Shown in pieces: positions 2,652 to 41,465 of a stretch of DNA of 64,000 nucleotides. A program made the translations under genes and the position numbers. The notes beneath the pieces are model-generated. The model was not told where the DNA came from and did not search any database. It worked only from the letters and a program-made list of their open reading frames with translations. Numbering within the stretch: the first letter of the stretch is position 1; the number at the start of each line of letters is the position of its first letter. Where the stretch lies: the IMG/VR virus record IMGVR_UViG_3300028840_008157; one strand, written 5' to 3'. Origin of the DNA: a virus. Taxonomy: Duplodnaviria; Heunggongvirae; Uroviricota; Caudoviricetes.

Positions 2652-2909
2652 GTGGCGTATCTCCTCCTTGGTTTCTCGCTGGGGCTATTCGTCGGAATCG
2701 GGATAGCCTACCTGAACTGGCGCAAGTTGAACAAGAAGAGGCAGGCGTACAAGATAGCCGAGCGCGTCGCCACGGCCATGGAGCACAGGTCCAATTACTT
2801 CGAGAGGCTCTCCAAGGGGCTTCTAACGGACAACGTCAAGCTGCATCGGGAGAACGAGCGCCTTCGAACCGAGAAGCTCAAGGCGTGGGGGATACCGGAC
2901 CGGATGTGA
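2652..2909 (+). CDS. small membrane protein (N-terminal TM helix plus coiled coil), ~85 aa
   Basis: GTG at 2652 with GGAGGG upstream. TM helix YLLLGFSLGLFVGIGIAYLNW is followed by a basic stretch and a heptad-like helix. It fills the only gap between minus-strand genes. Confidence 0.7.
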   Translation: MAYLLLGFSLGLFVGIGIAYLNWRKLNKKRQAYKIAERVATAMEHRSNYFERLSKGLLTDNVKLHRENERLRTEKLKAWGIPDRM

Positions 2910-5900
2910 CCGCGTGCTTGGCCCGCAGCTTGGCCTGGCTCTCCTCGATCTCCTTGGACTTGATGTGTTGCGGTACGTGATTCATGTCGTGGCGAAGCTT
3001 GGTGATCCTCGTCTTGATGGTATACCCCTTTTTGAGGAGCCGCCTGCACCAATCGTCGTCCCCGCCGTAATTGAAGAACGTCACGTCGTCGAGCGCCCCT
3101 ACGGCGTCCCACGTTTCCCTGCGCGTCATGACGCACCAGAAGAACAGCATGGGCGTCCCCAGCGTCGGGCTCATGCCGCCGTCGGGGGCGTGCGGGCCGA
3201 CGAGTCCGAGTTTCGGGTCGTTCTCCAGCTCGTCCCTGTATACGCCCAACCAGTCGTTGCCGTCGGGCTCCCTGCCCTCGACCCAGGCGTCGTCGTTGAA
3301 GAGCAGGACGTGCTTCCCCCTGGCCATGGCGACGCCCATGTTGACGGCCTTCTGATACCCAAGGTTCGTCGAGTTGCGCGTGAACCTGACGGCTGGCCTC
3401 TTGATGGATTCCTTGTCGAGGTAGTCCCTCGTCCCGTCCGTCGACCCGTTGTCGACCACGATGATCTCGAAAGGCGTCGACGTATGCGAGAAGATGCTGT
3501 CAATGCATCGCCTCAACAACGGGAGCCTTCCGGCCGTCGGGATGATGACGGAGACGATGTCCTTGATGGCGCACTCCACCTTGGCTGATCTTGGCGGGTT
3601 CAAGTCCCCTTCCGGGAACTGATGGACGCATATCTTCGTCCACGTCGTTTTATCGACCTGATCCAGCGGTATCAAATCTAGTCCCGACAACGACTTGCAT
3701 GACATCCCGTCGAGCTTGGCGTCGTCCAGGACCATGACGTCGCAGTACTTGATCTTCGTGGCGTCGACGCCCATCGTCTTCCCGTCGTTCCTGGAGATCA
3801 GGCACTCGTTCCTTAGCTCCGGACCTATCAAGACGCGATCATCCTTCTGGTACGTCTTGAAAACCTCGAACACGTAATCATCCATCCATTCCACCAGCAA
3901 CCCGCGCGGGTTGCCCATGAAGCGATAGGTATCCCTGATCGTCATGACGTAGTCCTCGCACTTCGCCAGGGCGAGCGAGAGCGTCGTCATCTCCTGCTGG
4001 GAGCAGCACGTCATCCGTAGCTTCTCCCCCCGCAGCTTGGCCCGGCATACCGGGTTCGGCGTCGTCACGTATACCTCGTCGGCGAACTCGGACGTCTTGG
4101 TCACGGCCTCTTGCAGGACGTTGACGTCGGGGCCTCCATTTATGACCGCGATGAGCCTTTTCTGCTCCGGATTATTTTCCTGCTCGGCGCCTTTCGTCTC
4201 GGGAATTTTTTCCTTTGGGGCCCTCTTTGACGCGGCGGCGTCGCGCAGGGCGACTCGCTTCTTCCACTTGGCGATGCGACGCTCGTATATCTTGTGGTCC
4301 CCCCCGGCGAGCTCGGCCTTGTTGTTGCCTATGTCGTCGGATCGGATTCCGCCCGCCGGCGCTTGGAAATGGAACCCCAGCGCTTCTGGATGGATGTACT
4401 GCTTGTATCCCGCGATGTGGAACCGGTAGGAGAAATCGCTCTCCTCGCGATGCCCGATCTGGGAGAACAGCTTGCAGTAGCCGCCTATGGCCACGCCTAT
4501 CTCGACGCGGAACATGAACGAGCTGTAAAGGTGCTCGACGAGACGAGGCTTCGTCCCCTCGGGGTAGAAGCACACGTACGGCCACGGGACGTTGTGATCG
4601 ATCTTGCCGCCGTAGTTGATGTCCTTTTCCCATCCTGGCGGCGGCGTTTGCGCCTCGCGTGACCTCTTTGGATCGGGGTACGTTCCGCCGACGGCGGCGA
4701 TCTCGCATTTCTCGTCGTCGACGAACGTCTCGAAAAGCTTCTCGAGGTACGTCGGTTCCAGGTAGATGTCGTCGTCGATGCGGCAGAGGAGCTTGTACTT
4801 GCGGCCCGGGTTCTCGTAGGTCATGAACAGCGTCCGGTCATGGGCCATGTGCGGTCCCTGCCGGTGGGACCGGATCATCCTCCAGTCATGCCCCTCGTGC
4901 CTCGCCCGGGCCAACAGCGACATGACGAGGTGGTCGTGCAGGATGTTCTCGTCGGCGTCGTCGACCTCGATGATCATGTCCCAGTCCTTGTACGTCTGGT
5001 GGAGCAACGAGCATAGCAGGACGGACAAGTAAGGATGCCGATCCCGCGTCACGACGTCGATCATGACGCGGTCTCCCTTCTTGACGGGCTCCAGTCCGGG
5101 CCTGACGAAGGAGATCGGGTCGAACTCGTTTCGGGAAGCCTTTTTCCTCCGGTCGGCGTCCCACTCGAACAGGAGCGGCGCGAGCGCCTTGGCCGACTTA
5201 TCCCACGTGAAGTTGTCCCTTACGTGCTCGTGGGCTTTCTTCCCCTTGGCCAACGCCTCCTCGCGCTCTTTCAGGACGTGCCACATCAGGAATTTCAAAT
5301 GGCCGATATGACAGTTGGCCCAGACGCCATTGTCCCCTGGCGCTCCCTCGTACGCCTTCGTGAAGGTTGTGTTCGGGTATGGGCTCAGGGAGATCGGGTA
5401 CGAGTTCTCCTCGTCGAAATACTCGGCGGGCGAGCTCCAATTGGTGAAGATGACGGGACAGCCCGTCGCGGCCCCCTCCAGGATCGGATAACCTATGCCC
5501 TCCCCGTGGCTGGGGTGGACGACGGCGTCCGCGTTGGCGTAGAGCTCGTACATCTCCTCCTTGGGAAGGTCTCCTATCTTGGCCCTCTCGTCCTGTCCGG
5601 TGAAGATGGCCCGGATGTTGGCCCGCCGGTCGTATGGGGGACCATCCTCCCTGGGGGCCGACACCCAAGACAGGTCCCCGAAGTTATTGCTCTTCAGGAC
5701 GAGCTCGACCTGGGATGGCTTGATGGGATAACCCGGCCCCTCCGGGATGTGCTCGGCGTCCTTGGGGAACGCCTCGCAGAACGCCTGGACGAGCCTGTAC
5801 GTGTCCTTCCTGGGCTGGCAAACGCCGACGTTGAGGAAGGTGAACTTGTCCTTCGAGAAATCCTTGATCGGTCGCTTGGCCAACCTCATGTAGGTCGGGT

Positions 5901-8382
5901 CGACGCCCGGAGGTATGACGTGTATCGGGGGCTTGAAGCCCGAATCCTGCTGCACTCGCTTGCAGAAATCCGAGAACGTCAGGATGCGGTCCATGGAGTT
6001 GCAAGCCTGGAGGTAACTCTCCCTGACCTTCGTGGACTCGCATAGCGAGATGCCGACCTTGTAACCGGCCTCGACCCCCAGGAACGTCTCCATGAGCCAG
6101 CAAACGATATTGACGCTATCGTAGAGGTCGTCCCCTTCCTCCTTCGCCTTCTTGGTCTTCTCGTAGAGTTCCTTGATTAGGGGGTTCGTTATCTTCGCCC
6201 CGTTGGACCAGTCGTTGACGTACACGTCGAAACCCATCTCGTGCAACTTGGGGATGAGGCCTTCCGCCAGCTCGCTGAACCCGACTGCGGCCCCGATGTG
6301 GGTTTGCCAGACGACCTTGACCTTCTGGCGCGCCTCCTTGCCCCACTTTGACTTCAAGTACGCGATGTTGTCCTCGATGAGGCCTTGCATGCCGTTCGCC
6401 TTGAGGGCGGCCCTTTTGCGCCCCCAGTCGGCCCCCTCGGGATCGGCCTCGGCGCGATTCTCTAGGTCCGACATGAGCATCCCGGCGACCTTGCCCTTGG
6501 AGCCCCCCTCTATGGCGTGCTTGTTCGTCCCGCCGGACTTGTGCCAGAACGGGACGTCCTGCTCGACGATCTTGAACCCCTTTCCCTGGGCTCGCCAGCA
6601 GAGATCGAGGTCCTCGTAATAGGCCGGCCAGTACGCCTCGTCGAACCATTTCCCGTCGGACATCCTGACGGAGTCGAGAACGCGCCTCGTCAGGAGGACG
6701 CAACAGAAATAAGGGAACTTGGCGCCTTCAAGGATGTCGTCTCGCTCGTTGAGCTTCATGCCGACGATCCCGATCGCCCCATCGGCCTCGGCGCGCTCCA
6801 CGTACATCCGAACCCAGTCCTTCGTGAGGCCGTGCTTCGCGGGGTCGATGGCCTCACCGTCGGGGTTGACGAGGATGACGTCCTTCCCCTTGGCCATCGC
6901 GATGGCCCGGTTGTTGGCCCCCGCGAAGCCGAGATTCTGGTCTAGCAGCAACGGCTTGATCCGCTTGTTCCCGGACGCCGCCTTGGCGATCCATTCCCTC
7001 GTTTTCTCCCTCTCCGGGCTGCCGTTGTCGACGATGATCCATTCGTAAGGGTACGTGACGTACTTCTCCATCGTGGAGCGCAGGCTGTCGATCCCGTCGT
7101 CTCCGGTCAGTTGCTCGTCTCCCGTGACGTTGTAGAGTACCGTCACGATGCTGACGAGTTCTCGTCGTTCCTTGACCTCCCTAATGACCTCGTCCCACTG
7201 GTCGTAGACGACCTTGGGCGAGTATCGGGACTCGGCCAACGCCTCCCCCTTCGCCCCCACCTCCGCCAGCATCTTGCCCCCCGACTTGAAATCCTGGTAG
7301 GCATCCTCCAGCTTGGCGGCGACGTCGTCCGTGTCGACTATGTTGTGGAAGACGGACATCTTGTCGTACCAGGCGCGTTCCTTGACCTTGCAAAACATGG
7401 CCCCCTCGCCGAGTACCTCGGGGAGGACTGGAACGTCAGGGGCGATCACCGGTATCCCGTGCGATATGGCCTCGACCGGGGCCAACCCGAACCCTTCCCC
7501 GGAGGTGGTCGTGAGGAAGACGTCCGCCGGCCAATAGAAGGACTGCGCCATTGACGTCGGGTTGAAGAAGAAGTCGTCGAAGACGACCTTCCCGCCGAGA
7601 CCGAGGTCGTTGACGAGGACCTCCAGGTCGACTCCCTCTTTCTTGCCCTCATCCCACATCGTGCAATCGCGCGGGTTGCACTTGGCCAGCATGACGACGT
7701 CGTCCTTGTCCTTGGCGAATTTGGCAAACGCCTCGAGCGTCAGCTTCCAATGCTTCCTGGGCTGGTGCCTGTCGACGCGCGTGACGACGAACATATGAGA
7801 TGCGTCGGCCTTCCTGCCGATCTTGTCAAGCCTCGGCTGAACGTGGTTCCGCTTGGCTTCTTCCTTAGAGCACGTCCTTCTTTGCGCGATGTCGACGGCG
7901 TGGTATATGACGCCGACGTCCTTCCCCGGGAGTTCCGGGGAATTGATGTTCATCGCGTGCTGGGTGACGAACCGTGTCGAGGCGCATTTGGAGAACAATT
8001 CGATGCCGAGCTTGTCGGGGCCGTCCCCCTCGAACGGGAGCCAGAAGACGGCCTTTTCCTGGATCTCCTGCGGCATGTCTCGGAGATAGGAGTAGCGATA
8101 ACTGTCGTTGTGGAACAGGAGGACGTCCGGGGAGACCTCGCTGTAGACGCGCTTGAGGCATTCGAGGTCTCCGTAGATGGCGTTCTTGTCCCTCTCGAGG
8201 GCGTAATTTGGGACGATCTTCAGGTCGTACCAGTCCTGGATGGTCTCCGGCATCCAGCCGCCGTTGAAGGCCATCGCATAGATCTCGTGTCCCCTGGCGA
8301 TGAGTTCCCTGGCGGTGAGCCGACAGGTATAGGCGTAGCCCGTTTGGATGGACGGGTTATCCATGAAGATCAGGATTCGCAT
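2878..8382 (-). CDS. multi-domain glycosyltransferase polyprotein, 1834 aa (GT4-GT2-GT4-GT2-degenerate GT2-like-GT2)
   Basis: GT4 motifs RHQPRKH / TTSGEGFGLAPVEAISHGIPV and VCQPRKD / HPSHGEGIGYPILEGAATGCPV. GT2 motifs SIVTVLYN..IIVDNGS..ILVNPD, IDVVTRDR..IIEVDD..CRIDDD, and VSVIIPT..IIVVDNGSTDGT..LLFNDD. Confidence 0.92.
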   Translation of the reverse strand: MRILIFMDNPSIQTGYAYTCRLTARELIARGHEIYAMAFNGGWMPETIQDWYDLKIVPNYALERDKNAIYGDLECLKRVYSEVSPDVLLFHNDSYRYSYLRDMPQEIQEKAVFWLPFEGDGPDKLGIELFSKCASTRFVTQHAMNINSPELPGKDVGVIYHAVDIAQRRTCSKEEAKRNHVQPRLDKIGRKADASHMFVVTRVDRHQPRKHWKLTLEAFAKFAKDKDDVVMLAKCNPRDCTMWDEGKKEGVDLEVLVNDLGLGGKVVFDDFFFNPTSMAQSFYWPADVFLTTTSGEGFGLAPVEAISHGIPVIAPDVPVLPEVLGEGAMFCKVKERAWYDKMSVFHNIVDTDDVAAKLEDAYQDFKSGGKMLAEVGAKGEALAESRYSPKVVYDQWDEVIREVKERRELVSIVTVLYNVTGDEQLTGDDGIDSLRSTMEKYVTYPYEWIIVDNGSPEREKTREWIAKAASGNKRIKPLLLDQNLGFAGANNRAIAMAKGKDVILVNPDGEAIDPAKHGLTKDWVRMYVERAEADGAIGIVGMKLNERDDILEGAKFPYFCCVLLTRRVLDSVRMSDGKWFDEAYWPAYYEDLDLCWRAQGKGFKIVEQDVPFWHKSGGTNKHAIEGGSKGKVAGMLMSDLENRAEADPEGADWGRKRAALKANGMQGLIEDNIAYLKSKWGKEARQKVKVVWQTHIGAAVGFSELAEGLIPKLHEMGFDVYVNDWSNGAKITNPLIKELYEKTKKAKEEGDDLYDSVNIVCWLMETFLGVEAGYKVGISLCESTKVRESYLQACNSMDRILTFSDFCKRVQQDSGFKPPIHVIPPGVDPTYMRLAKRPIKDFSKDKFTFLNVGVCQPRKDTYRLVQAFCEAFPKDAEHIPEGPGYPIKPSQVELVLKSNNFGDLSWVSAPREDGPPYDRRANIRAIFTGQDERAKIGDLPKEEMYELYANADAVVHPSHGEGIGYPILEGAATGCPVIFTNWSSPAEYFDEENSYPISLSPYPNTTFTKAYEGAPGDNGVWANCHIGHLKFLMWHVLKEREEALAKGKKAHEHVRDNFTWDKSAKALAPLLFEWDADRRKKASRNEFDPISFVRPGLEPVKKGDRVMIDVVTRDRHPYLSVLLCSLLHQTYKDWDMIIEVDDADENILHDHLVMSLLARARHEGHDWRMIRSHRQGPHMAHDRTLFMTYENPGRKYKLLCRIDDDIYLEPTYLEKLFETFVDDEKCEIAAVGGTYPDPKRSREAQTPPPGWEKDINYGGKIDHNVPWPYVCFYPEGTKPRLVEHLYSSFMFRVEIGVAIGGYCKLFSQIGHREESDFSYRFHIAGYKQYIHPEALGFHFQAPAGGIRSDDIGNNKAELAGGDHKIYERRIAKWKKRVALRDAAASKRAPKEKIPETKGAEQENNPEQKRLIAVINGGPDVNVLQEAVTKTSEFADEVYVTTPNPVCRAKLRGEKLRMTCCSQQEMTTLSLALAKCEDYVMTIRDTYRFMGNPRGLLVEWMDDYVFEVFKTYQKDDRVLIGPELRNECLISRNDGKTMGVDATKIKYCDVMVLDDAKLDGMSCKSLSGLDLIPLDQVDKTTWTKICVHQFPEGDLNPPRSAKVECAIKDIVSVIIPTAGRLPLLRRCIDSIFSHTSTPFEIIVVDNGSTDGTRDYLDKESIKRPAVRFTRNSTNLGYQKAVNMGVAMARGKHVLLFNDDAWVEGREPDGNDWLGVYRDELENDPKLGLVGPHAPDGGMSPTLGTPMLFFWCVMTRRETWDAVGALDDVTFFNYGGDDDWCRRLLKKGYTIKTRITKLRHDMNHVPQHIKSKEIEESQAKLRAKHAVTSGPVSPTP

Positions 8383-8428
8383 CGGATGCCCTCATTTCAG
8401 TATTCAATCGCGTACGTCTACGACTTGA

Positions 8429-8818
8429 TCATACGGGAGGTTGCTCGTCGCCCATGGACTGGGCCTTCATTTCCGACATGTAGTCGTGGAACTCCTCGGT
8501 GTTGCAATGCCCCGAGCCGTTGCACTTGGGGCATGGCTTGTAGCCCTGGCGGATGGTCGTCCCGCACGAGCACTTCTCCAGCATCCCCCGACGCTCGAGC
8601 AGGTCGAAGACGTCGCTCATGCCGTTGTAGAATTGGTCCATCACGACCTTCTTGTAATACTTGTAGACGTCGGAGTTCCGGTCACCGATCCTCATCTCGC
8701 CGAGGGTCAATATCTCCTTCATCGATGCCATGAACCGGAGGTAGATCAGCTTCGCCAATTGGGCGTCGTCCGGTATCGGCTTGACCGGTTTCGGGGGCCT
8801 GCTGGGACTCGGCGACAT
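8429..8818 (-). CDS. hypothetical protein with C-terminal Cys-rich (probable zinc-binding) motif, 129 aa
   Basis: CSCGTTIRQGYKPCPKCNGSGHC motif; coupled to neighbours. Confidence 0.7.
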   Translation of the reverse strand: MSPSPSRPPKPVKPIPDDAQLAKLIYLRFMASMKEILTLGEMRIGDRNSDVYKYYKKVVMDQFYNGMSDVFDLLERRGMLEKCSCGTTIRQGYKPCPKCNGSGHCNTEEFHDYMSEMKAQSMGDEQPPV

Positions 8819-8821
8819 TGC

Positions 8822-9751: not shown

Positions 9752-9754
9752 GAC

Positions 9755-11236: not shown

Positions 11237-11287
11237 GTCGTCTCCGTTCAGGTCATACATACTACACGTAGACATGATACGTCGTCA

Positions 11288-29923: not shown

Positions 29924-29933
29924 CGGCGATCGC

Positions 29934-33727: not shown

Positions 33728-33753
33728 GTTCTCAGGTCTCGAAAATAGTTCCT
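33728..33753 (-). promoter_or_regulatory. candidate promoter AGGA-N18-GAAC upstream of 31478..33703
   Basis: Minus strand reads TAGGAAC tattttcgagacc TGAGAAC. The upstream box overlaps the TAG of the previous gene, and the motif ends 24 nt before the ATG. Confidence 0.55.
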
Positions 33754-34645: not shown

Positions 34646-35565
34646 CAGAACACCGAGATTACCATTATGTAGCCGTCGCCTCCGTCTCCGCCAACGCCAC
34701 CAGTTGTTCCAGCGCCGCCTCCTCCGCCTCCTCCTCCGCAAAGACCTCCGTTGCCGCCTGCCCCGCCGACACCAGAGTCGTTACCGCCTCCGCCTCCACC
34801 ACCTGCTCCGCCTTTCGTAGAGCCGCCGTTCTCTCCGTCTGTTCCGTCCGAACCGCCCGTTGCTCCACCGCTGCCTCCTCCTCCAGCCGTGTAGCTGAGG
34901 CATGCGCCTCCTGCGGCCCCTGCGGCTTCTACATGGGAACCATTGACGTATCCGCCCGCTCCGCCGCCTGCGCCCGCTCTAAGTGAACTACCACCTTTGC
35001 GAACATAGTTGTCGGAAGCGCAGGAACCGCCAGGCGCTCCCCCACGGTCGGAGGAGTAGGGGTCGCCTGTTATCGGCGAAACGGGGTCTACCCCCTGACC
35101 CGCGTTCCCGTCTGTTAGCGCCACGGGCCTGCCACCCGTTGTTCCGCTGGCGTTTCCCCCAGCCCCTGCGCCGCCTCCACCGACGCCACCATTTGCCGTC
35201 GATTGTCCTCCAGCGCCAGCATATGCGACAACGTAGGAACCAAAGCTGCTTTCGGTTCCTGCGGAGCCATCGTTTCCCGCCGTTCCTCCAGCGCCTCCCG
35301 TCCCAACGGTCACCGTGATCTTCCAAGGAAGTACCCATCCTACGAGATGGACGACCTTGTAGGTTCCCCCTCCTCCCCCTGCCCCTCCTCCTATACTGTC
35401 TGGGCCGCTTTCCCCGCCACCGCCACCGCCGCCTGCCCCATACGCGATGACGGTGACTTGCTTAGCCCACCAGTTTCGACGCCACGTATAGGTTCCCGCG
35501 CTCGAATAGACGCTGACCGCGACGTATCGATGTAGACCAAAGAGCGAAGAAGCGCGTCTTGCCAT
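34645..35565 (-). CDS. glycine-rich adhesin-like protein 2, 306 aa
   Basis: YTWRRNWWAKQVTVIAYGAGGGG ... GDGGDGYIMVISVF; paralog of both neighbours. Confidence 0.85.
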   Translation of the reverse strand: MARRASSLFGLHRYVAVSVYSSAGTYTWRRNWWAKQVTVIAYGAGGGGGGGESGPDSIGGGAGGGGGTYKVVHLVGWVLPWKITVTVGTGGAGGTAGNDGSAGTESSFGSYVVAYAGAGGQSTANGGVGGGGAGAGGNASGTTGGRPVALTDGNAGQGVDPVSPITGDPYSSDRGGAPGGSCASDNYVRKGGSSLRAGAGGGAGGYVNGSHVEAAGAAGGACLSYTAGGGGSGGATGGSDGTDGENGGSTKGGAGGGGGGGNDSGVGGAGGNGGLCGGGGGGGGAGTTGGVGGDGGDGYIMVISVF

Positions 35566-35574
35566 AGTTGATCC

Positions 35575-36528
35575 CTAGAACGCTATCACCATGCAATATC
35601 CATCTCCGCCAGCTCCTCCGCTGCCAGCCGTTATCCCGCCGCCACCACCACCGCCTCCTCCTCCAGCGCGTCCCCCATTGCCACCGTTGCCCGCTGTTCC
35701 TGACGCGTTTCCGCCACCACCGCCGCCACCGCTTCCTCCGATGCCTCCGTAGCCGTTCGTCCCTGCGGTTCCGTTGGAACCGACCGCTCCCCCGCTTCCT
35801 CCGCCAGCCGATCCACGACCTGAAAGCCAGTACTCATTGGATGCCCCGCCTGTCCCGCCTGCGCCGTTGGTGTTGTCGAATTTGGCCCAGCCACCTGAAC
35901 CGCCACCGCCACCGCCATAAATGGAGCTTCCTCCGTCTTGGCTGGACTGGTAATATCCACCACCTCCAGAGCCACCTCCCCATTCTGAACTAAAACCATT
36001 TGATGCGGCAAGTCCCCTTACTCCTTGCCATCCAGCACCGCCGCTTGAGCCAGTTTCGGGTCCTGCTGGGTCTCCGCTAGTGGACAGGTTCGCTCCGCTG
36101 TCTCCACCAGCCCCGCCGCCACCATCGCAAACCGTCGTCGCGCCCTCGTTCAAAGGATTTTCACCGCCTCCTCCTCCGTAGGCGACAACATACGATCCAA
36201 AACTACTTGGCCCTCCGTTCGCTCCGTTCGCCTGGATTCCACCACCTGAGCCTCCCGCGCCGATAGTAACGGTAACGGTATCTGTCAAGTCCGCAGCATT
36301 GAATTGTTCTTGTTTGCAGCCGCCACCACCGCCGCCTCCGCCGCCAGATCTAGACGTACCAGATCCGTCTGACCTACCGCCTGCTCCGCCGCCGCCTGCG
36401 CCGTAAATAACGACGATGACTTGCTTAGCCCAGTACGGCTTTGTCCACTCATACTCATCGGCGGCTTCATAGACCTGGACGTCTGAGAACTCGGCGCTCC
36501 CAAGGTATGTACTCGCACGAATGGGCAT
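35575..36528 (-). CDS. glycine-rich adhesin-like protein 1, 317 aa
   Basis: YEWTKPYWAKQVIVVIYGAGGGG ... GAGGDGYCMVIAF. Confidence 0.85.
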   Translation of the reverse strand: MPIRASTYLGSAEFSDVQVYEAADEYEWTKPYWAKQVIVVIYGAGGGGAGGRSDGSGTSRSGGGGGGGGGCKQEQFNAADLTDTVTVTIGAGGSGGGIQANGANGGPSSFGSYVVAYGGGGGENPLNEGATTVCDGGGGAGGDSGANLSTSGDPAGPETGSSGGAGWQGVRGLAASNGFSSEWGGGSGGGGYYQSSQDGGSSIYGGGGGGSGGWAKFDNTNGAGGTGGASNEYWLSGRGSAGGGSGGAVGSNGTAGTNGYGGIGGSGGGGGGGNASGTAGNGGNGGRAGGGGGGGGGGITAGSGGAGGDGYCMVIAF

Positions 36529-39500
36529 TATTCATCGTCCTTGCCACGCGGATCGATCCATCCCACCGTGTTGATGATCCCAGATATCCCCGTCGAGCTT
36601 CCGGTATGCTTGATCTGCGCCGACGTGTCGGTATAGGCGACCGCGACGGGGACCCGCATCCACGTGCTGGCGGGAGCCGTGGTGACGATACCTTGCGGGG
36701 CCGCCCCGGTGGCGTCGTAGCTCGTCGTGTAGTAATACTTGCTCGTGTCCGCGGACCAGCCTTGTATCGCGTGCCTCGCGCCGACCACGACGCCGGTCGG
36801 GACGGTCAACGTCACGGCCGTCAGGCTGTTGTTGGGGGCCGCGGCGCTGTAGTCCGAAACCGCGGCGTTCCAGTCGAACCGGTCTCCATACTGGTAGAAG
36901 GTCGTGATGTTGCCGCTGCCGTCGGTCAGGATCGCCCCGATGCGCCTCTTGATGTCGTAGTTGGCCGGCATCGTCGGCGCGGTCGCGGAGATCGAGAACA
37001 GGGCGTCCACGACGTTCGTGTCCGATCTCTTGATCAGCCAGACATGGTACCAGGTTGAGTTGGCCTTGGAACCAGTATCCAACCCTCCAAGCCCAGTTCC
37101 CACGGCCCACGCGGCGTCCAAGCGCTTGGTCAGCCCCTCGGCCAAGATCAGGTCGGCCGAGTCCCCGTCGTCCCTGCACGATCCGACGGAGATGTCGATG
37201 TCGTTATTTGGGTCGCCAACGTTGTTGCTGAGGACAAGCCCGTCTATGTACCCCCTTGGCATGGAGACGCCGGCCGACTCGTCCATGTACGGGTTGAACA
37301 TCCATCCCTCGTCGGCGCCCGTATAGACGAACTCGAAGGTCATCTGGTTCAAGTCGCACAGGAGGTCCTCGGCTTCGCCCTGGATGTTGTTGCCGTTGCG
37401 GGCTACCGTCAGGTTGTTCTCCGAGAACGAGGACGTGGCGTCGGACACCGCAACGATGTCGCCGACGCTCGGGCTTTCTGGCAGCGTGAGCGTCCACGCG
37501 CCGCCGCTGGTATCGGCGAGGATGCCCTCGAAGGAGTTAGCCGTGTAATTGGCCGACTTGGAAATCCACGTCACGCCTCCGCCAGTGGTCCCCGAGAACC
37601 CGCTGGTCCCGGAGAAACCGGAGATTCCAGTCTCCCCGGCGTCCCCCGAGAACCCGGAGTAACCGGAGTCGGGACCGCCCGCGCCGATCAGGCCGCGCAT
37701 GTTCACGACGAATCCCGTCGTCGTCCCCGTGGCGATCAGTATGGGCTTGCTGACCTCGGTTCCGCCGATCGGTTCCGTCGTCGTGATCTGGCCGGCGACG
37801 TCCTTGGAGACGTAGTAGACCGACGCGTCGGTCAAGCCCGATAGCCCGCTTATGTACCCGGCAAGAACGATCGTGAAGTCGTCCCCGTCAACGGACTCGA
37901 CGATGCCCACGGCCTCGGCCGTCGCCTCCGCGTCGGCCTTGGCCAGCTCGAACGAGCCTGACGCCCTATAGACGACGTTTTGGACGGCGAATCCATGCCC
38001 GGCCTGGGTGAAGGTCCTCTTGACCGTCTCTCCGGCCCCGACGTTGAATCCAGAGAACCCGGAGAAGCCGGAGTCGCCCGTCGCGCCGGTCGGGCCAAGG
38101 GCACCCGAGATTCCCGAGTAACCCGACTCGCCCGCCTCGCCAGGAGCTCCGGAGAACCCCGAATAGGCGCTGACCCCGGACTCGCCGGAGTAGGCACTGA
38201 ACCCCGAATAGGCGCTGACGCCTGACGCTCCGGAGTAGGCTGACGCCCCGCTCGTACCGGAAGGCGCCGAATATCCGCTGAATCCGGATGTACCTTCAAG
38301 GCCTTCAATGCCGCTGAACCCGGACGCTCCTTGCGTTCCCGCGGTACCGCTGAAGCCGGAATCGCCTATGGTTCCGTCGGCGCCGCTGAACCCGCTCGCC
38401 CCGGAGTAGGACGAGAATCCGCTGGTACCCGAGTAGGAGCTGAATCCGCTCGTTCCTGACGTTCCACTTGCTCCAGCGGAACCAGAAAATCCTGACGTCC
38501 CGCTCTTCCCGGAATACCCGCTCGCTCCCGATTTCCCGGAGTAACCGCTCGCCCCGGAGTAGGAGGTCATCCACAACCAACCATTGATGCCTCCGTCGGC
38601 GTCCTTCTGGGTTACGAGAACCCACTCGCCGCCAGCGGTCAAGGTTACTTTGGTTTCCAGGGAGAAATCGTGTTGAACGGCAAAGGTAACATCCGAGTCC
38701 GAGGATTCGTTCCTGCGAATTATGCAGTTGAAACCGTCAGGCAACGAGCTTGTCGGGAACATGTTGGGTGTCTTGATGCGAACCGACCCGCCGGACGCTG
38801 TAACGTCGAGAACATGATGATGATCCGCCAACGATAGGGTTTGATTGCTGTTATATTCCGTCGTAAGCCAATAACAGGTCGCCGAGAACCCGCTGACTCC
38901 CGATTCACCCTCCCCGGAATAACCGCTGCTCCCTGAATAGGCCGAGAACCCGCTCGTACCGGAGTAAGCGCTGAACCCGGACGTTCCGCTGAATCCGCTT
39001 GGTCCGCTCGGCCCGGATTCCCCCGCTTGTCCGCTGAACCCGCTAGTCCCGGACGCCCCGCTGGCGCCTGCCGTACCGGCTACGCCGGACTCTCCGGAAT
39101 ATCCGCTGAATCCGCTGCTTCCTGGGCCGCCAGCTTGGGCCGAGAAACCCGACAATCCGGAGTATCCCGACGATCCCGAGGTGCCGCTGGTTCCGCTCGT
39201 GCCGGAAGTTCCCGATTCCCCGGTCCCTGAATAACCGCTGACGCCAGACCACCCGCTTGTCCCGGATGATCCTTGTTCACCTGACGAGCCAGAGAATCCG
39301 GAGGTGCCGGAGGATCCAGATGTACCGCTCGTTCCCGATTCCCCGGTCCCGGAATAACCGCTGACGCCAGACCAACCGCTCGTCCCGGACGTCCCCGGTC
39401 CGCCAGCCTGGGCGGAGAATCCAGACAAGCCGGAGTATCCCGAAGAACCAGAAGTACCGCTCGTTCCGGATTCTCCGACCCCGGAATGGCCGCTGAATCC

Positions 39501-41465
39501 GGTAATGCCGCTATGACCTGAAAAACCGCTTGTCCCGCTTTCCCCGGACGTACCGGCTGGTCCAGCCTCCCCCGATGTCCCGCTCGTTCCGCTAAATCCA
39601 GAAATCCCGCTATACGCCGAGGTGCCGCTCGTTCCCGAGGTCCCTGAATCTCCAGCCTCCCCTGTCGTCCCGGAGAAACCGGACGAGCCGCTTAGGCCGG
39701 AATAGCCACTGGCCCCAGAAGTTCCCGAATCGCCTGTCTGGGCTGAAAATCCAGACCATCCGCTCGTGCCGGACGTACCTGGGCCGCCCGCCTCGGCGGA
39801 GAATCCAGACAAGCCGCTATATCCGGACGTCCCGGAATCGCCTGTCGAGCCCGGACTACCCGTCGCGCCCGACTCCCCGGAAATACCAGAGTAGGCGCTG
39901 AAACCGCTCGTCCCGGAATAACCAGACGTCCCTGACGTTCCAGACTCACCGCTCGTTCCGGACCACGCGCTGAAGCCGGATACTCCAGAGGTTCCGGAAT
40001 CGCCTGTCGAACCCGGACTACCAGTCGCGCCAGACTCCCCCGAAAGCCCCGAGAAACCGGAGAATCCAGAGGTTCCTGGTCCTCCCGCCTGGGCGGAGAA
40101 TCCGGACAAGCCGGAGTATCCGGACGTCCCGGAATCGCCTGCCGATCCAGGGCTACCCGCCGCGCCGGACTCCCCGGAAAGACCAGAGTAGGCGCTGAAA
40201 CCGCTCGTCCCGGAATAACCAGACGTCCCTGACGTTCCAGACTCACCGCTCGTTCCGGACCACGCGCTGAATCCGGAAATCCCGGAATCACCGCTGTATC
40301 CGCTGCTCGCGGTTCCCGAGAAACCGGAGGTTCCGGACGTCCCAGGGCCGCCTGCTTCGGCTGAAAAACCTGACAGGCCGCTATACCCGGACGTTCCGGA
40401 GTCGCCAGCCGATCCTGGACTACCGGTCGCTCCCGACTCTCCTGAGTAACCGCTGAAACCGCTCGTCCCGGAGTAGCCGGACGTCCCTGACGTTCCGGAA
40501 TCACCGCTCGTTCCGGACCACGCGCTGAAACCAGAAGTACCAGAAGCACCGGACTCGCCGCTATATCCGCTGCTCGCGGTTCCCGAGAAACCGGAGGTTC
40601 CGGACGTCCCAGGGCCGCCTGCTTCGGCTGAAAAGCCTGACAGGCCGCTATACCCAGAATCTCCCTCGGTACCCGAGACGCCGCTGTAACCACTAAACCC
40701 ACTGGGCCCGCTTGGACCGGAAGGACCGCTGTAACCTTCCCCGGAGAAACCCGAGGTTCCGCTGTCGCCAGAAAACCCGCTGGGTCCGCTTGGACCGGAG
40801 GGCCCGCTGTAGCCTTCCCCGGAGAAACCCGAGGTCCCGCTTTCTCCAGCCTGGGCCGAGAATCCGCTCGTGCCGGAATAACTGCTAAATCCCGACGTTC
40901 CGCTGGTACCGCTCGTTCCCGAATAACCGCTTTGACCAGCACCGCTTTGACCGGAAGCCCCGCTCAGTCCTTCTCCAGAGAAACCCGAAGCCCCGCTGGA
41001 TCCTGATTCCCCGGAAGTCCCGCTTTCCCCGGAAGTACCACCCTGTCCAGAAGTCCCGCTCTGTCCGGAGGGGCCTTGCGTTCCCGATATTCCGCTGTCC
41101 CCGGAGGTTCCAGAGTGACCCGAATTCGCCGAGAACCCGCTAAGTCCCGATTGCCCGCTATGCGATGACGCTCCGCTGGTGCCCGAAATACCGGAGTGGC
41201 CCGATGTCCCGCTAAGCCCGACCGCTCCCCTGTAGCCGGAAGTTCCAGAATGACCAGAATATCCCGAGTAACCCCTCATCCCGGACGTTCCCGACGTCCC
41301 GGAATATCCTGAATCGCCTTGCGGGCCAGGGACGATGGAGCCTCCCTGCCCCGCCTGGTTCATGTCGATGACGTTGGTCTTCGTAGGCGGTGGCGTCTGC
41401 TCCGTCCTGCAAGTTTCCAGGATGATTTCGCCGCTCTGGAAGTTATGTTCGCCGGTGGTTGGCAC
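36528..41465 (-). CDS. mosaic tail-fibre protein D, 1645 aa: Gly-Xaa-Ser stalk segments separating four globular fibre domains
   Basis: GTG start with GAGG RBS. Domains in order: ~810 aa SGX; CYWLTTEYNSN...GWLW domain; ~170 aa SGX; TQAGHGF..LAKADA..EAVGIV domain; WISKSANYTA..DTSGGAWTLTLPESPSVGD (T4 gp34-like fibre repeat); RGYIDGL..DIDISVG..WYHVW..RRIG tip domain. Confidence 0.85.
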   Translation of the reverse strand: MPTTGEHNFQSGEIILETCRTEQTPPPTKTNVIDMNQAGQGGSIVPGPQGDSGYSGTSGTSGMRGYSGYSGHSGTSGYRGAVGLSGTSGHSGISGTSGASSHSGQSGLSGFSANSGHSGTSGDSGISGTQGPSGQSGTSGQGGTSGESGTSGESGSSGASGFSGEGLSGASGQSGAGQSGYSGTSGTSGTSGFSSYSGTSGFSAQAGESGTSGFSGEGYSGPSGPSGPSGFSGDSGTSGFSGEGYSGPSGPSGPSGFSGYSGVSGTEGDSGYSGLSGFSAEAGGPGTSGTSGFSGTASSGYSGESGASGTSGFSAWSGTSGDSGTSGTSGYSGTSGFSGYSGESGATGSPGSAGDSGTSGYSGLSGFSAEAGGPGTSGTSGFSGTASSGYSGDSGISGFSAWSGTSGESGTSGTSGYSGTSGFSAYSGLSGESGAAGSPGSAGDSGTSGYSGLSGFSAQAGGPGTSGFSGFSGLSGESGATGSPGSTGDSGTSGVSGFSAWSGTSGESGTSGTSGYSGTSGFSAYSGISGESGATGSPGSTGDSGTSGYSGLSGFSAEAGGPGTSGTSGWSGFSAQTGDSGTSGASGYSGLSGSSGFSGTTGEAGDSGTSGTSGTSAYSGISGFSGTSGTSGEAGPAGTSGESGTSGFSGHSGITGFSGHSGVGESGTSGTSGSSGYSGLSGFSAQAGGPGTSGTSGWSGVSGYSGTGESGTSGTSGSSGTSGFSGSSGEQGSSGTSGWSGVSGYSGTGESGTSGTSGTSGTSGSSGYSGLSGFSAQAGGPGSSGFSGYSGESGVAGTAGASGASGTSGFSGQAGESGPSGPSGFSGTSGFSAYSGTSGFSAYSGSSGYSGEGESGVSGFSATCYWLTTEYNSNQTLSLADHHHVLDVTASGGSVRIKTPNMFPTSSLPDGFNCIIRRNESSDSDVTFAVQHDFSLETKVTLTAGGEWVLVTQKDADGGINGWLWMTSYSGASGYSGKSGASGYSGKSGTSGFSGSAGASGTSGTSGFSSYSGTSGFSSYSGASGFSGADGTIGDSGFSGTAGTQGASGFSGIEGLEGTSGFSGYSAPSGTSGASAYSGASGVSAYSGFSAYSGESGVSAYSGFSGAPGEAGESGYSGISGALGPTGATGDSGFSGFSGFNVGAGETVKRTFTQAGHGFAVQNVVYRASGSFELAKADAEATAEAVGIVESVDGDDFTIVLAGYISGLSGLTDASVYYVSKDVAGQITTTEPIGGTEVSKPILIATGTTTGFVVNMRGLIGAGGPDSGYSGFSGDAGETGISGFSGTSGFSGTTGGGVTWISKSANYTANSFEGILADTSGGAWTLTLPESPSVGDIVAVSDATSSFSENNLTVARNGNNIQGEAEDLLCDLNQMTFEFVYTGADEGWMFNPYMDESAGVSMPRGYIDGLVLSNNVGDPNNDIDISVGSCRDDGDSADLILAEGLTKRLDAAWAVGTGLGGLDTGSKANSTWYHVWLIKRSDTNVVDALFSISATAPTMPANYDIKRRIGAILTDGSGNITTFYQYGDRFDWNAAVSDYSAAAPNNSLTAVTLTVPTGVVVGARHAIQGWSADTSKYYYTTSYDATGAAPQGIVTTAPASTWMRVPVAVAYTDTSAQIKHTGSSTGISGIINTVGWIDPRGKDDE
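39885..40271. repeat. perfect 90-bp direct repeat (39885-39974 and 40182-40271) within fibre D
   Basis: accagagtaggcgctgaaacc...gaccacgcgctgaa is identical in both copies; related diverged copies lie at ~40290-40390 and ~40565-40645. Confidence 0.85.

Follow-up and report, generated by a model that had tools for sequence, protein, structure and literature searches.

Does a tailed phage with a very large genome use its own enzymes to glycosylate collagen-like fibres? This question is raised by a 64,000-nucleotide stretch (the window) of a ~547-kb phage genome, in which the genes for giant Gly-X-Ser repeat proteins and for soluble glycosyltransferases (GTs) all lie on the minus strand (Table 1). 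The region is best explained as the fibre and host-recognition part of the phage, in which a variable cassette is bordered by conserved giant β-propeller proteins on one side and a conserved soluble GT module on the other. In the cassette, four proline-free (Gly-Xaa-Ser)n proteins are accompanied by three with glycine-rich domains and by a few accessory proteins, while the module consists of a 506-aa GT4, two small conserved proteins and a 1834-aa GT4-GT2a-GT4-GT2b-X-GT2c fusion. The genomic evidence supports well the proposal that the module glycosylates the fibres, and we put its probability at roughly 55%.

Table 1. Genes and domains of the fibre block and GT module, in gene order.
Feature	Coordinates	Strand	Assignment
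1645-aa fibre protein	36528..41465	-	Pfam Collagen; ~987 triplet residues in several blocks
317-aa glycine-rich domain protein, first of three tandem paralogs	35575..36528	-	Pfam Gly_rich_2 PF21722, E 1.9e-12
306-aa glycine-rich domain protein (paralog)	34645..35565	-	Pfam Gly_rich_2, E 2.9e-8
~297-aa glycine-rich domain protein (paralog)	33752..34645	-	Pfam Gly_rich_2, E 9e-5, slightly under cut-off
741-aa fibre protein	31478..33703	-	Pfam Collagen, E 3.4e-74; nearly all Gly-X-Ser (660 residues)
246-aa protein within fibre block	30679..31419	-	No Pfam/PHROG match
247-aa protein	29934..30677	-	Stand-alone protein paralogous to the C-terminal globular domain of the 2795-aa fibre
Giant fibre, ORF of 2795 aa	21620..30007	-	2553 residues in Gly-X-Ser triplets
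Giant fibre, 2277 aa	14774..21607	-	2079 residues in Gly-X-Ser triplets
525-aa protein, variable block	13195..14772	-	No Pfam/PHROG match
~636-aa protein, variable block	11288..13198	-	Weak C-terminal BclA_C-like match; start read from sequence
506-aa GT4, first gene of module	9755..11275	-	Pfam Glyco_trans_1_4 + Glycos_transf_1
309-aa acidic protein, conserved module member	8822..9751	-	No family match
129-aa protein, conserved module member	8429..8818	-	Cys-x2-Cys ... Cys-x2-Cys motif
1834-aa soluble GT fusion	2878..8382	-	GT4 - GT2a - GT4 - GT2b - Rossmann-like domain - GT2c
GT2b domain (fusion residues ~1125-1440)	4063..5010	-	In other phages, homologs show genomic linkage to aromatic Gly-X-Ser fibres
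332-aa protein	1556..2554	-	Follows fusion gene in most relatives, directly or after one small gene

The fibre proteins carry collagen-type repeats

The four repeat ORFs (1645, 741, 2795 and 2277 aa) contain 6,279 residues in [Gly/Ala]-Xaa-Ser triplets, counted in runs of at least six [G/A]-x-x triplets, and 2,287 Ser in total. These counts bear out the ~6,300 repeat residues and 2,000 or more Ser hydroxyls claimed in the initial annotation. Position 1 is Gly in 89-93% of triplets and Ala in 7-11%, while position 3 is Ser in 79-96% (92% in the 741-aa fibre and 95.5% in the 2795-aa fibre). The X position is filled by Thr, Phe, Tyr, Ser or Ala; proline is essentially absent, and Lys almost absent. 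Pfam Collagen matched both of the fibre proteins that were scanned whole, with E values of ~1e-101 to 2e-101 for the 1645-aa protein, and by these measures the repeats are of the collagen Gly-X-Y type with Ser at Y. Tandem Repeats Finder reported just 13 short arrays across 26.7 kb, and all six Ser codons are in use at the Y position (TCN 57%, AGY 43%). Because the arrays are few and all six codons are used, we rejected a DNA-repeat artefact and infer that the triplet periodicity is maintained at the protein level. Triplets whose Y residue carries a side-chain hydroxyl are thus preserved by protein-level selection.

The 1645-aa fibre has a globular insert and a C-terminal non-repeat region of ~350 aa, and the 2795-aa and 2277-aa fibres end in globular domains of ~160 aa and ~117 aa. 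If triple-helical, these two would be ~730 nm and ~595 nm long, respectively. The true start of the 2795-aa ORF is probably a Met at ~29923 or ~29893. By eye, the short N-terminal motif of the 2277-aa fibre is like that of the 2795-aa fibre; low-complexity-filtered tblastn of N-terminal segments from both against the window gave no cross-match. Also by eye, the N-terminus of the 1645-aa fibre is like those of short fibres that occupy the same slot in two related loci, L305 and L007, and BLASTP with low-complexity filtering linked L007 with L305 only, not with the 1645-aa fibre.

PHROG tail-fibre families match Gly-X-Ser proteins, and the 317-aa glycine-rich-domain protein matches PHROG 863 (tail category, E 1.9e-19). 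The listed ORF of its ~297-aa paralog extends to 34741; the likely start, as read from the sequence, is an ATG overlapping the upstream stop codon. The 247-aa protein is 32-38% identical to residues ~2675-2789 of the 2795-aa fibre. The ~636-aa protein, which scores 18.3 bits against Pfam BclA_C (E 0.0023; cut-off 38), may form the tip of a fibre or serve as an accessory protein.

The glycosyltransferases are intact and soluble

The GT genes run in the same direction as the fibre genes, as first described, but do not lie directly downstream of them, since the 525-aa and ~636-aa genes intervene before the GT4. Six intact GT domains, three GT4 and three GT2, had been recognized in the two GT genes, and we recover all of them: five are robust by Pfam, and the sixth, the divergent GT2b, which alone falls under the Pfam cut-off (E 0.018), is identified by homology and an AlphaFold model. 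The 506-aa GT4 has an N-terminal extension of ~130 aa and orthologs that are 59-64% identical; its best match among solved structures is chlorovirus B736L (E 5e-8). The fusion comprises GT4 (residues 1-400), GT2 (400-700), GT4 (690-1135), GT2b (1130-1440 in the Pfam scan) and a strong GT2 (1595-1834); its full-length orthologs number more than 50 and are 45-83% identical to it. Relatives carry a gene of 292-348 aa at the place of the 309-aa acidic protein, one of 119-138 aa at that of the 129-aa protein (40% identical in L026), and a counterpart of the 332-aa protein of 327-330 aa.

In a Kyte-Doolittle scan of the enzymes and fibres, the maximum 19-residue mean was 1.28, and we therefore find no transmembrane or signal-like segment in either, in agreement with the original remark that neither has an evident signal peptide. 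Enzymes and fibres are thus predicted to be soluble, and their genes are co-oriented.

The module is conserved while the fibre slot varies

Gene-order comparison identifies the GT module as a conserved core cassette of a huge-phage clade and the fibre block as a variable neighbouring insert. In the related locus L001, which also lacks the 525-aa gene, a Kelch gene directly abuts the GT4, and the window's fibre block is a clean insertion relative to it. Six-frame scans of L001, L002 and L003 found no Gly-X-Ser gene within 10 kb of the module, nor did Pfam gene calls alone on the P0038 contig, and the conserved giant proteins contain no short Gly-X-Ser tracts. Elsewhere in the clade (L007/L008, L009, L305, the P0004 contig and L013), collagen-like genes adjoin the module. 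GT8/GT9 genes occupy the same slot in L002 and L003, and a DNA methylase lies within the module of L003. Because the module is core (more than 50 relatives) and the fibre block variable, fibre-GT adjacency in the window alone is weak evidence. In addition, the persistence of the module in relatives without a nearby Gly-X-Ser gene calls for another (or additional) acceptor, unless those genomes encode fibres at some other position.

These comparisons lend weight to a different reading, that the module decorates other phage targets (the capsid, the giant Kelch/fn3/VWA proteins or a free glycan coat) and that its adjacency to the fibres is incidental. The fibres would then be unglycosylated or modified by different enzymes. 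Inteins are present in orthologs of both GT genes, suggesting that these are old, conserved genes; another large GT island lies nearby in the same genome; and mycobacteriophages glycosylate capsid and tail-tube proteins (Freeman 2023, as cited in PMC12582341). We regard this reading as unlikely, though a serious possibility, because it leaves unexplained both the recurrence of collagen-like genes beside the module within the clade and the operons in which small, unrelated phages lacking such giant proteins combine GT2b homologs with aromatic Gly-X-Ser genes.

GT2b is linked to aromatic Gly-X-Ser fibres across phages

The motifs of GT2b are intact (R-I-D-D-D, VEHLYSSFMFR, HREES-x-F and GGIR), and its Asp-Asp-Asp metal-binding motif and other invariant residues are kept across 43 aligned homologs. 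The AlphaFold model has a GT-A fold (pLDDT 90.7). IMG/VR holds at least 562 matches, while a search of prokaryotes (one genome per species, 185,579 species) yielded 10, all on metagenome-assembled contigs. GT2b is a separate subfamily within GT-A, and most of its members lie on phage contigs. Sequence and profile searches of the PDB returned no match, and a fold search gave only generic GT-A matches (polysaccharide polymerases, ppGalNAc-T, TarP), which are therefore uninformative on the acceptor.

We picked 80 IMG/VR loci by GT2b alone and sought Gly-X-Ser runs within 10 kb. Aromatic-rich Gly-X-Ser genes were present at 49 of the 80, all on the GT2b strand, and where at least 3 kb flanked both sides, 20 of 25 loci had Gly-X-Ser runs. 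By comparison, 80 control loci selected by PhoH (1.15 Mb) contained neither an aromatic Gly-X-Ser gene nor GT2b (Fisher p = 7e-20, uncorrected for locus relatedness). The linkage appears in 6 of 10 GT2b clusters (<50% identity between clusters) and spans GC contents of 0.23-0.52, or up to 0.62 when the window's own clade is included. Part of the association is inherited gene order, as 60 of the 80 loci belong to a single 50%-identity cluster. Of the 80 loci, 26 also carry a GT2a relative and 38 a GT2c relative.

The reverse search started from 55 records, mostly fragments, picked solely by a Gly-Tyr-Ser DNA pattern, and recovered GT2b in 22. The domain is absent from both Gly-Tyr-Ser-fibre records estimated to be 100% complete; among the more complete records without GT2b, however, multi-domain GT2 genes are present in each of four, and are fibre-adjacent in two. 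The linkage is limited to aromatic Gly-X-Ser and is not seen for non-aromatic Gly-X-Ser or Gly-X-Thr fibres. On prokaryote MAG contigs, 9 of 10 GT2b-like loci lack a Gly-X-Ser gene in the vicinity. The fibre-GT co-occurrence that the initial annotation proposed as a test therefore holds for GT2b, one domain of the fusion. Gly-X-Ser fibres of the non-aromatic type occur without the GT2b family. Aromatic content in the window's own fibres is 24%, compared with a median of 49% for GT2b-linked fibres. Three things are shown here: how the repeats are built, that the GT domains are intact, and that GT2b is linked to aromatic Gly-X-Ser fibres across phage genomes. Because this linkage appears in forward and reverse tests alike, genomics supports fibre glycosylation well. 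We found no paper on this pairing.

The usual order at GT2b loci is fibre - methyltransferase - GT2b - small GT9-like protein, and the methyltransferase and GT9-like partners are absent from the window. This small-phage cassette (IMG/VR loci L021 and L038-L104) occurs in minimal form, as gp23-gp26, in the cultured Methylophilaceae phage P19250A (KX815270.1). GenBank annotates the P19250A genes as 'hypothetical' and labels the fibre gene a tape-measure protein. The window shares with the cassette its fibre chemistry and the GT2b family (27-36% identical to the fusion domain). However, the small-phage GT2b stands alone at ~325 aa, whereas that of the window is one of five GT domains in a fusion accompanied by a GT4, and the window's fibres reach 2,800 aa.

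The specificity of the linkage for aromatic Gly-X-Ser chemistry would be unexpected of an enzyme that remodels host surface glycans (LPS O-chain, teichoic acid or capsule), for example in blocking superinfection. Such a role has been put forward in print for GTs encoded amid the tail-fibre genes of pelagimyophages and cyanomyophages (PMC7029224), and the place of the GTs in the host-recognition cluster would then reflect regulation or evolutionary history. Fold matches that include TarP, polysaccharide polymerases and SpsA fit this account, as do the GT8/GT9 genes of L002 and L003, families typical of LPS synthesis. Nevertheless, the GTs have no membrane segment, and the window genes include no flippase, polymerase, initiating phosphoglycosyl-transferase or Gtr-type membrane protein, so we hold a host-glycan target to be doubtful. 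Modification of phage DNA, by which T-even phages glucosylate hydroxymethyl-cytosine and evade restriction, is the classic phage GT role (PMC9614988), and the DNA methylase within the L003 module would fit it, but it is highly improbable here given the lack of a hydroxymethylase or other base-modification gene in the window, a six-domain assembly suggestive of an oligosaccharide product, and the operon linkage to fibre genes.

Relation to known glycosylation systems

The best precedent, by analogy, is provided by BclA of the Bacillus exosporium and BclA3-SgtA of Clostridioides difficile, in which collagen-like surface filaments are O-glycosylated (PMC7157674; PMC8968730), in the cytoplasm in the case of BclA3-SgtA. 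SgtA, a GT-A enzyme whose gene neighbours bclA3, modifies the Y-position Thr of Gly-Pro-Thr collagen repeats with O-GlcNAc and accepts Ser-substituted peptides as well (PMC7157674). The window shares the Gly-X-Y stalk, the hydroxy amino acid at Y, the globular ends and a GT-A gene beside the fibre gene. It differs in having Ser rather than Thr at Y, Thr/Phe/Tyr/Ser/Ala rather than Pro at X, stalks ~10 to 100 times longer and no fibre protein with a BclA_C domain above cut-off. Its six-domain module lacks a TPR domain and, fold aside, shows no recognizable sequence similarity to known solved GTs; the system is borne by a phage, not a spore, and its glycosylation is a prediction.

Giant viruses likewise use virus-encoded GTs, for mimivirus and chlorovirus fibril or capsid glycans, and mimivirus encodes L230 alongside L71 and other collagen-like proteins (PMC9614988). 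They share with the window GTs of their own that are independent of host glycosylation organelles, collagen-like proteins and multi-domain soluble GTs. L230, however, hydroxylates Lys and glucosylates the hydroxylysine in the style of animal collagen, whereas the window has almost no Lys and no hydroxylase, and its virus is tailed and has a bacterial host. The collagen-like fibres already known from phages and prophages (E. coli O157:H7 prophage collagens, PRD1 P5, streptococcal HylP) are Gly-X-Y trimeric stalks in host-recognition proteins (PMC3368898). Unlike those of the window, they are short (tens of triplets) and contain proline or charged residues, with no reported glycosylation.

The initial annotation knew of no comparable system in tailed phages. 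Mycobacteriophages, however, glycosylate virion proteins with phage-encoded GTs (Freeman 2023, Cell Host Microbe, as cited in PMC12582341), and since the logic is the same, the general idea is not new for this group. Common to both, as proposed for the window, would be O-glycosylation of the phage's own virion proteins in the cytoplasm; the GT families differ. The mycobacteriophage targets are reportedly the C-terminal tails of capsid and tail-tube subunits, not collagen-like fibres.

The repeats had also been likened to animal Ser-Gly glycosaminoglycan sites and to the streptococcal serine-rich-repeat proteins GspB, Fap1 and PsrP, with which they share many regularly spaced Ser hydroxyls and adjacent GTs. 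A true analogue of either, xylose-initiated or built by GtfA/GtfB, is scarcely credible despite 1,792 Ser-Gly dipeptides, a weak match of the 506-aa GT4 to Gtf1/GtfA (5e9t, E 4e-4) and a match of GT2c to GalT1 of the Fap1 pathway (5hea, E 4e-8): both matches are limited to generic nucleotide-binding regions; the repeats have a strict period of three with Gly first and are assigned to Collagen by Pfam, whereas the streptococcal period is two, without obligatory Gly; only 40 of the 1,792 dipeptides (2%) have the acidic context that glycosaminoglycan sites need; and we saw in the window no xylosyltransferase, GtfB-like partner or accessory Sec genes, on which the one system or the other depends.

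A model for fibre glycosylation

Returning to glycosylation of the Gly-X-Ser fibres, we propose that the module would O-glycosylate the repeat hydroxyls in the cytoplasm of the infected cell, with the regularly spaced Ser at the Y position as the likeliest acceptor. Initiation would fall to GT2b, as the candidate fibre-specific enzyme, and the remaining GT-A and GT-B domains would extend the glycan. Roles for such fibres in shielding or mimicry, as first suggested, are speculation. The outcome would be hydrated, sugar-coated stalks of up to ~0.2-0.7 μm, whose glycan may stabilize a triple helix that is aromatic-rich, lacks proline and has Ala at ~9% of its Gly positions.

A collagen-type triplet in four repeat proteins

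The phage genome is about 547 kb (longest contig, 546,851 bp), and every gene in the window is encoded on the minus strand. Triplet runs of the form [Gly/Ala]-Xaa-Yaa occupy 987, 660, 2553 and 2079 residues of the four repeat proteins and individually reach 647 residues; their sum, 6,279, agrees with the roughly 6,300 repeat residues of the initial annotation. Gly fills the first position in 89-93% of triplets in all four proteins, Ser fills the third (Y) in 79-96%, amounting to 2,287 serines, and the middle position (X) is Thr (27%), Phe (15%), then Ser, Ala or Tyr. In a Pfam scan of whole proteins, which covered the 1645-aa and 741-aa proteins, the Collagen family (PF01391) matched both, with E values of 2e-101 and 3e-74 and 11-12 matched stretches. 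Because of this match, we describe the unit as a Gly-X-Ser collagen-type triplet rather than a Ser-Gly dipeptide repeat. The sequences depart from the strict-Gly, imino-acid pattern of collagens: Ala stands for Gly in 7-11% of triplets, Pro is at 0.8-2.9% and charged residues are few. Given a triple helix, the computed stalk lengths are ~190-730 nm at 0.286 nm per residue.

Tandem Repeats Finder detected just 13 short arrays across the 26.7 kb of repeat region, and the Y-position serines draw on both codon families (57% TCN, 43% AGY) and on every one of the six codons. Together, these results rule out a DNA-repeat artifact as the source of the periodicity, and the mixed codon use argues for selection on the protein. 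Alternative minus-strand frames within the two largest repeat genes contain open reading frames of up to 1013 aa. These are Pro/Ala/Arg-rich translations of the same repeats, most likely by-products of composition and not genes.

The 182 Ala-for-Gly triplets of the repeat region (~9%) follow a grammar of their own. In 81% of them the next residue is Tyr, Phe, Trp or His, versus 24% after Gly, and most follow a Phe or Thr triplet. The pattern recurs in relatives L007-L009 (8.7% Ala) and not in small-phage fibers (0.4%).

Positions and contents of the features discussed. Window genes are listed in transcription order; other entries are metagenomic or viral loci (L), fusion orthologs or their contigs (P), or a cultured phage.
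Feature	Position	Strand	Contents
Window genes
Four giant proteins	63998-41852	minus	VWA/BNR, fn3/Kelch and Kelch domains
1645-aa repeat protein	36528-41465	minus	Gly-X-Ser
Three tandem glycine-rich-domain proteins		minus	Pfam Gly_rich_2; PHROG tail category
741-aa repeat protein	31478-33703	minus	Gly-X-Ser
Two ~246-aa proteins		minus
2795-aa repeat protein	21620-30007	minus	Gly-X-Ser
2277-aa repeat protein	14774-21607	minus	Gly-X-Ser
525-aa protein		minus
~636-aa protein		minus
506-aa GT4	9755-11275	minus	one glycosyltransferase domain
309-aa protein	8822-9751	minus	acidic
129-aa protein		minus	Cys-x2-Cys
1834-aa fusion	2878-8382	minus	five glycosyltransferase domains
332-aa protein		minus
Other window features
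Region of Ala-for-Gly triplets	14774-41465	minus	182 triplets
Alternative-frame reading frames	within 21620-30007 and 14774-21607, e.g. 24697-27738	minus
Slot upstream of GT4 in relatives
L001			Kelch protein abuts GT4; window block 41465-11288 entirely missing
L002, L003	L002:4982-6544, L003:1-2990		GT8/GT9 and methyltransferase genes upstream of GT4
P0038 contig			methyltransferases and transposase
L007/L008			two Gly-X-Ser genes directly upstream
L305			307-aa aromatic Gly-X-Ser fiber exactly between Kelch and GT4
P0004 contig			388-aa gene with Collagen match
L009			873-aa Gly-Tyr-Ser gene nearby, opposite strand
L013 (distant relative)			Gly-x-Thr-Gly-Val-Gln collagen-like gene directly after fusion
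Other loci
Volactin-like genes	L001:26359-26840, L002:24610-25538, L004:18027-19112, L305:23834-24946, L306:17401-18504
Intein carriers	P0002, P0005, P0026, P0044, P0050; L004:657-3536; P0004 and P0038 contigs
P19250A gp23	KX815270.1 21390-24995 (L317:2759-6364)
Genes directly upstream of minimal cassette	L021:126-1446 (and L080)		cupin-domain protein, 191-aa protein
Non-aromatic Gly-X-Ser class near phoH	L106-L185, e.g. L168, L178, L183, L184
GVMAG-named IMG/VR records with Gly-Tyr-Ser pattern	L187, L193, L196, L206, L223, L232, L245, L247

Six glycosyltransferase domains in two genes

The six glycosyltransferase (GT) domains that the initial annotation placed in two genes were recovered by Pfam, homology and structure modeling. 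The fusion reads GT4, GT2a, GT4, GT2b, GT2c, its last two GT domains separated by a Rossmann-like domain, and the 506-aa protein supplies the sixth domain. All three GT4 domains score above the Pfam cut-off (Glycos_transf_1 or Glyco_trans_1_4), and Glycos_transf_2 matches three stretches of the whole fusion (E 6e-44), GT2b alone being weak by Pfam. On visual inspection, the two GT4 domains of the fusion retain the Glu-x7-Glu motif, whereas the 506-aa GT4 has Gln for the second Glu. The metal-motif region, also read by eye, is N-P-D-G in GT2a (a Pro-Asp-Gly variant), I-D-D-D in GT2b and N-D-D-A in GT2c. The genes are co-oriented with and downstream of the fiber genes as originally described, though not directly so, as two other genes separate the last fiber gene from GT4. 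We found no membrane or signal-like segment in the enzymes and fibers of the window, in keeping with the earlier observation that signal peptides are not evident.

GT2b is a divergent GT-A domain. Its AlphaFold model has a pLDDT of 90.7 and matches GT-A folds at probability 1.0. Four motifs, R-[IV]-D-D-D, V-[ED]-H-L-[YH]-x-x-F, H-R-E-E-[ST]-x-F and G-G-I-R, all lie within fusion residues 1125-1440, with the Asp-Asp-Asp at 1203-1205; in an alignment of 43 sequences their columns are invariant or nearly so, in the forms R-I/V-D-D-D, VEHLYSSFMFR, HREE-S/T-x-F and GGIR. Neither a sequence search with a stand-alone GT2b nor a profile search with GT2b alignment A2 identified a relative in the PDB. 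Foldseek returned generic GT-A folds only (chondroitin and heparosan polymerases, GlfT2, hyaluronan synthase, ppGalNAc-T2, TarP and SpsA), with no pointer to the acceptor.

Cultured phages yielded no megablast match to the GT region, and an IMG/VR search for related loci with the fusion protein as single query returned nothing. A search with the GT4 alignment returned no genome contig, one IMG/VR locus and eight JGI loci, most of them short. At their N-termini (~25 residues), the 506-aa GT4 and the acidic 309-aa protein resemble each other by eye: both have a short motif, beta-strand-like and containing Phe-Leu-Asp and Asp/Gly-Asp, that may be a shared docking element.

GT2b is linked to aromatic Gly-X-Ser genes across phages

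Searching IMG/VR with the 741-aa fiber returned four contigs. One of them (L021), from a low-GC small phage, carries an operon for an 890-aa Gly-X-Ser fiber, a methyltransferase, a 324-aa GT2 and a 147-aa GT9-like protein, and the 324-aa enzyme specifically matches fusion residues 1106-1400 (E 1e-18). The cultured Methylophilaceae phage P19250A (KX815270.1) has the same minimal four-gene cassette as gp23-gp26: 843 of the 1201 residues of gp23 are in aromatic Gly-X-Ser triplets, and this gene is followed by the methyltransferase (gp24), GT2b (gp25, 74% identical to the L021 enzyme) and the GT9-like protein (gp26). Judging from these repeats, gp23 is more likely a fiber, and its GenBank label, "tail length tape-measure protein", looks wrong. 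Directly upstream of the L021 cassette, one gene encodes a cupin-domain protein and another a protein of 191 aa. The latter has no Pfam match; its His-x-Asp ... His pattern recalls 2-oxoglutarate/Fe(II) oxygenases, and it may be a further fiber-modifying enzyme.

A profile scan of IMG/VR identified at least 562 GT2b loci, and we examined the best 80 with flanks of up to 10 kb. Gly-X-Ser runs were found in 49 of the 80, all on the GT2b strand. Linkage held for 20 of the 25 loci with at least 3 kb on both sides, and an upstream fiber was present in 35 of the 48 with at least 3 kb upstream. The other cassette members were also frequent among the best 80 (methyltransferase in 47, GT9-like gene in 74), as were relatives of GT2a (26) and GT2c (38). 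For comparison, we used 80 PhoH-selected viral loci totaling 1.15 Mb. The control is imperfect in that fourteen of them contain Gly-X-Ser genes, all non-aromatic, with Ser, Thr, Leu or Ile at X and an aromatic share of 0-4%; the share is 18-63% (median 49%) in GT2b-linked fibers and 24% at X in the window fibers. GT2b was absent from the 80 control loci and from 16 whole control records. The check proposed in the initial annotation, co-occurrence of fibers and GTs across IMG/VR, was therefore positive for GT2b, as aromatic Gly-X-Ser genes accompany it in 49/80 loci versus 0/80 controls (p = 7e-20, kinship of loci ignored). Part of this association is inherited gene order, because 60 of the 80 loci form one 50%-identity cluster. 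Linkage occurs in six of ten clusters plus the window's clade, and linked loci span a GC content of 0.23-0.52, or up to 0.62 once the window's clade is included.

We also ran the test in reverse, with a DNA pattern encoding two copies of Gly-Tyr-Ser-Gly-[Tyr/Phe]-Ser that picked out at least 120 stretches. GT2b was present in 22 of the 55 searchable records, most of which are fragments. Genes for multi-domain GT2 proteins are present in each of four of the more complete records that lack GT2b, and they adjoin the fiber gene in two of these. In a set of one genome for each of 185,579 prokaryote species, GT2b is nearly absent: it gave 10 matches, all on MAG contigs, with a fiber gene nearby in one. 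Among 27 long GT2b reading frames, we found no fusion of fiber and GT2b.

The same Gly-Tyr-Ser pattern matches contigs assigned by binning to giant-virus (Nucleocytoviricota) MAGs, one locus having as many as 35 matches. The non-aromatic Gly-X-Ser class is common near phoH, where it reaches ~2,100 residues per locus without GT2b, and GT9-family genes of 400-438 aa occur in 4 of the 16 control records with non-aromatic fibers.

In the window, the fibers lie upstream of and co-oriented with GT2b. The best-supported conclusion from these comparisons is that GT2b-family enzymes would act on aromatic Gly-X-Ser collagen-like fibers. The GTs of the module may instead modify the host O-chain, which is the published reading of such enzymes within phage host-recognition clusters (PMC7029224). 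Host modification, however, does not predict specificity for one fiber chemistry, and the window enzymes come without membrane parts and the usual polysaccharide-export partners. On the other side, we found no methyltransferase or GT9-like homolog in the window, which weakens the case for fiber glycosylation. Region 1400-1620 of the fusion, considered as a fused counterpart of the small GT9-like partner, was rejected, as BLASTP found no similarity between them; its model shows a Rossmann-like plus beta-sheet domain.

The glycosyltransferase module and its variable neighbor

More than 50 full-length orthologs of the fusion, 45-83% identical, occur on metagenomic contigs, several with inteins. 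The module is constant in every readable context and comprises, in order, the GT4, two proteins of ~300 and ~125 aa, and the fusion. The next gene usually encodes a ~330-aa protein, PhoH lies further on, and six contexts include a Volactin-like gene. This gene (PF25216, actin-fold) is kept ~8-10 kb downstream of the module in relatives. Inteins with Hint, Intein_splicing and LAGLIDADG domains recur in both GT genes of the clade, stretching the proteins to 959-3183 aa; inteins usually reside in conserved, important genes.

The contents of the slot upstream of GT4 differ between relatives. Collagen-like genes fill or flank it in about six of ten lineages, and several contigs end there, as repeats would cause. 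Two relatives (L002 and L003) have in this place proteins of 520-540 aa that match GT8 as well as GT9 in Pfam, plus a Methyltransf_24 gene, and the slot seems to swap between fiber genes and extra glycan enzymes. Judged by gene order, the GT module is the core and the fiber block a variable cassette in the neighboring slot. In four relatives (L001-L003, and P0038 by Pfam gene calls), no Gly-X-Ser gene was found within 10 kb of the module, and this retention of the enzymes weakens the fiber-glycosylation reading. Nor did the conserved giant proteins or L001-L004 contain short Gly-X-Ser tracts that might serve as alternative acceptors. By itself, adjacency within the clade is suggestive at most of a link between fibers and GTs.

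Comparison with known glycosylated repeat proteins

The initial annotation had likened the system to proteoglycans and to streptococcal serine-rich repeat proteins, and the defining features of both fail here. Proteoglycan sites have an acidic cluster, whereas 40 of the 1,792 Ser-Gly dipeptides have at least two acidic residues within four positions, the repeat is a collagen triplet, and the GT region has no Pfam match to a xylosyltransferase-type family. Serine-rich repeat proteins are built on a Ser-x dipeptide, in contrast to the period of three with Gly first seen here. The match of the 506-aa GT4 to Gtf1 (E 4e-4) is weak and generic, and no accessory Sec genes (SecA2/SecY2) or GtfB-like partner were found among the window's genes.

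The BclA type fits the window system in logic and not in membership. Both have a hydroxy amino acid at Y (Ser in the window, Thr in BclA and BclA3; PMC7157674), and the window likewise has a GT4 and a GT fusion 3.5-6.4 kb downstream of the fibers on the same strand. BclA is glycosylated (PMC8968730), and SgtA, a GT-A enzyme encoded beside bclA3, transfers O-GlcNAc onto Thr at position Y of Gly-Pro-Thr repeats, with Ser-substituted peptides serving as acceptors too (PMC7157674). Unlike BclA, the window fibers have Ser for Thr, essentially no proline and no BclA_C (C1q/TNF-like) trimerization domain, which had no match in the separately scanned fiber C-terminal domains; the neighboring ~636-aa protein has a sub-threshold BclA_C match (18.3 bits versus a cut-off of 38).

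Viruses also glycosylate their own proteins. Mimivirus encodes glycosylation of collagen-like proteins via hydroxylysine (PMC9614988), and mycobacteriophages are known to glycosylate their virions with enzymes of their own (Freeman 2023, as cited in PMC12582341). Literature searches on glycosylation of phage collagen-like fibers, Gly-X-Ser repeats and huge phages with collagen and GTs did not find such fibers paired with dedicated GTs. By its sequence features, the window system is a candidate for a glycosylated collagen-like surface fiber with virus-encoded glycosylation, in an extreme fused form.

Proposed function and implications

The fiber-glycosylation interpretation of the initial annotation thus gains support from the GT2b linkage and loses that of the proteoglycan and streptococcal analogies. 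Glycosylation of the four fibers by the GT module, through GT2b, is in our estimate slightly more likely than not (about 0.55). GT2b, fused with GT2a-like, GT2c-like and two GT4 domains, would be part of an assembly line that decorates the four giant fibers in the cytoplasm. By analogy with SgtA, the acceptor is most likely the Y-position Ser.

Proline-free, aromatic-rich sequences with Ala for some Gly should make a poor triple helix alone, as indicated by collagen host-guest studies. It is therefore an attractive extension that the glycan may stabilize the triple helix of the fibers. The galactosyl-threonine of the cuticle collagen of the vent worm Riftia exemplifies the principle that such a sugar-dependent helix would match. 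A bolder proposal, which we regard as doubtful, is that proline-free aromatic (Gly-X-Ser)n proteins are a widespread, undescribed fiber class whose helix folding needs dense O-glycosylation of Y-position Ser by GT2b, a dedicated GT-A family located mainly on phage contigs, and extension enzymes. The six-domain assembly line and the four ~0.2-0.7 um fibers would then surround the virion with a proteoglycan-like coat or net.

With its minimal four-gene cassette, the cultured phage P19250A makes fiber glycosylation by GT2b directly testable. If this glycosylation occurs, it would explain why six GT domains are kept beside ~19 kb of repeat genes in a huge phage, and it would provide a natural collagen-type helix without proline or hydroxyproline, held by sugars, which would be of interest to collagen biophysics and recombinant collagen materials. 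The reading of GTs in host-recognition clusters as modifiers of host LPS would need revisiting. If GT2b does glycosylate fibers, environmental phages would commonly glycosylate their own host-recognition fibers, a trait so far overlooked and not a mycobacteriophage curiosity, given the number of GT2b loci in IMG/VR and the Gly-Tyr-Ser genes on giant-virus-binned contigs.
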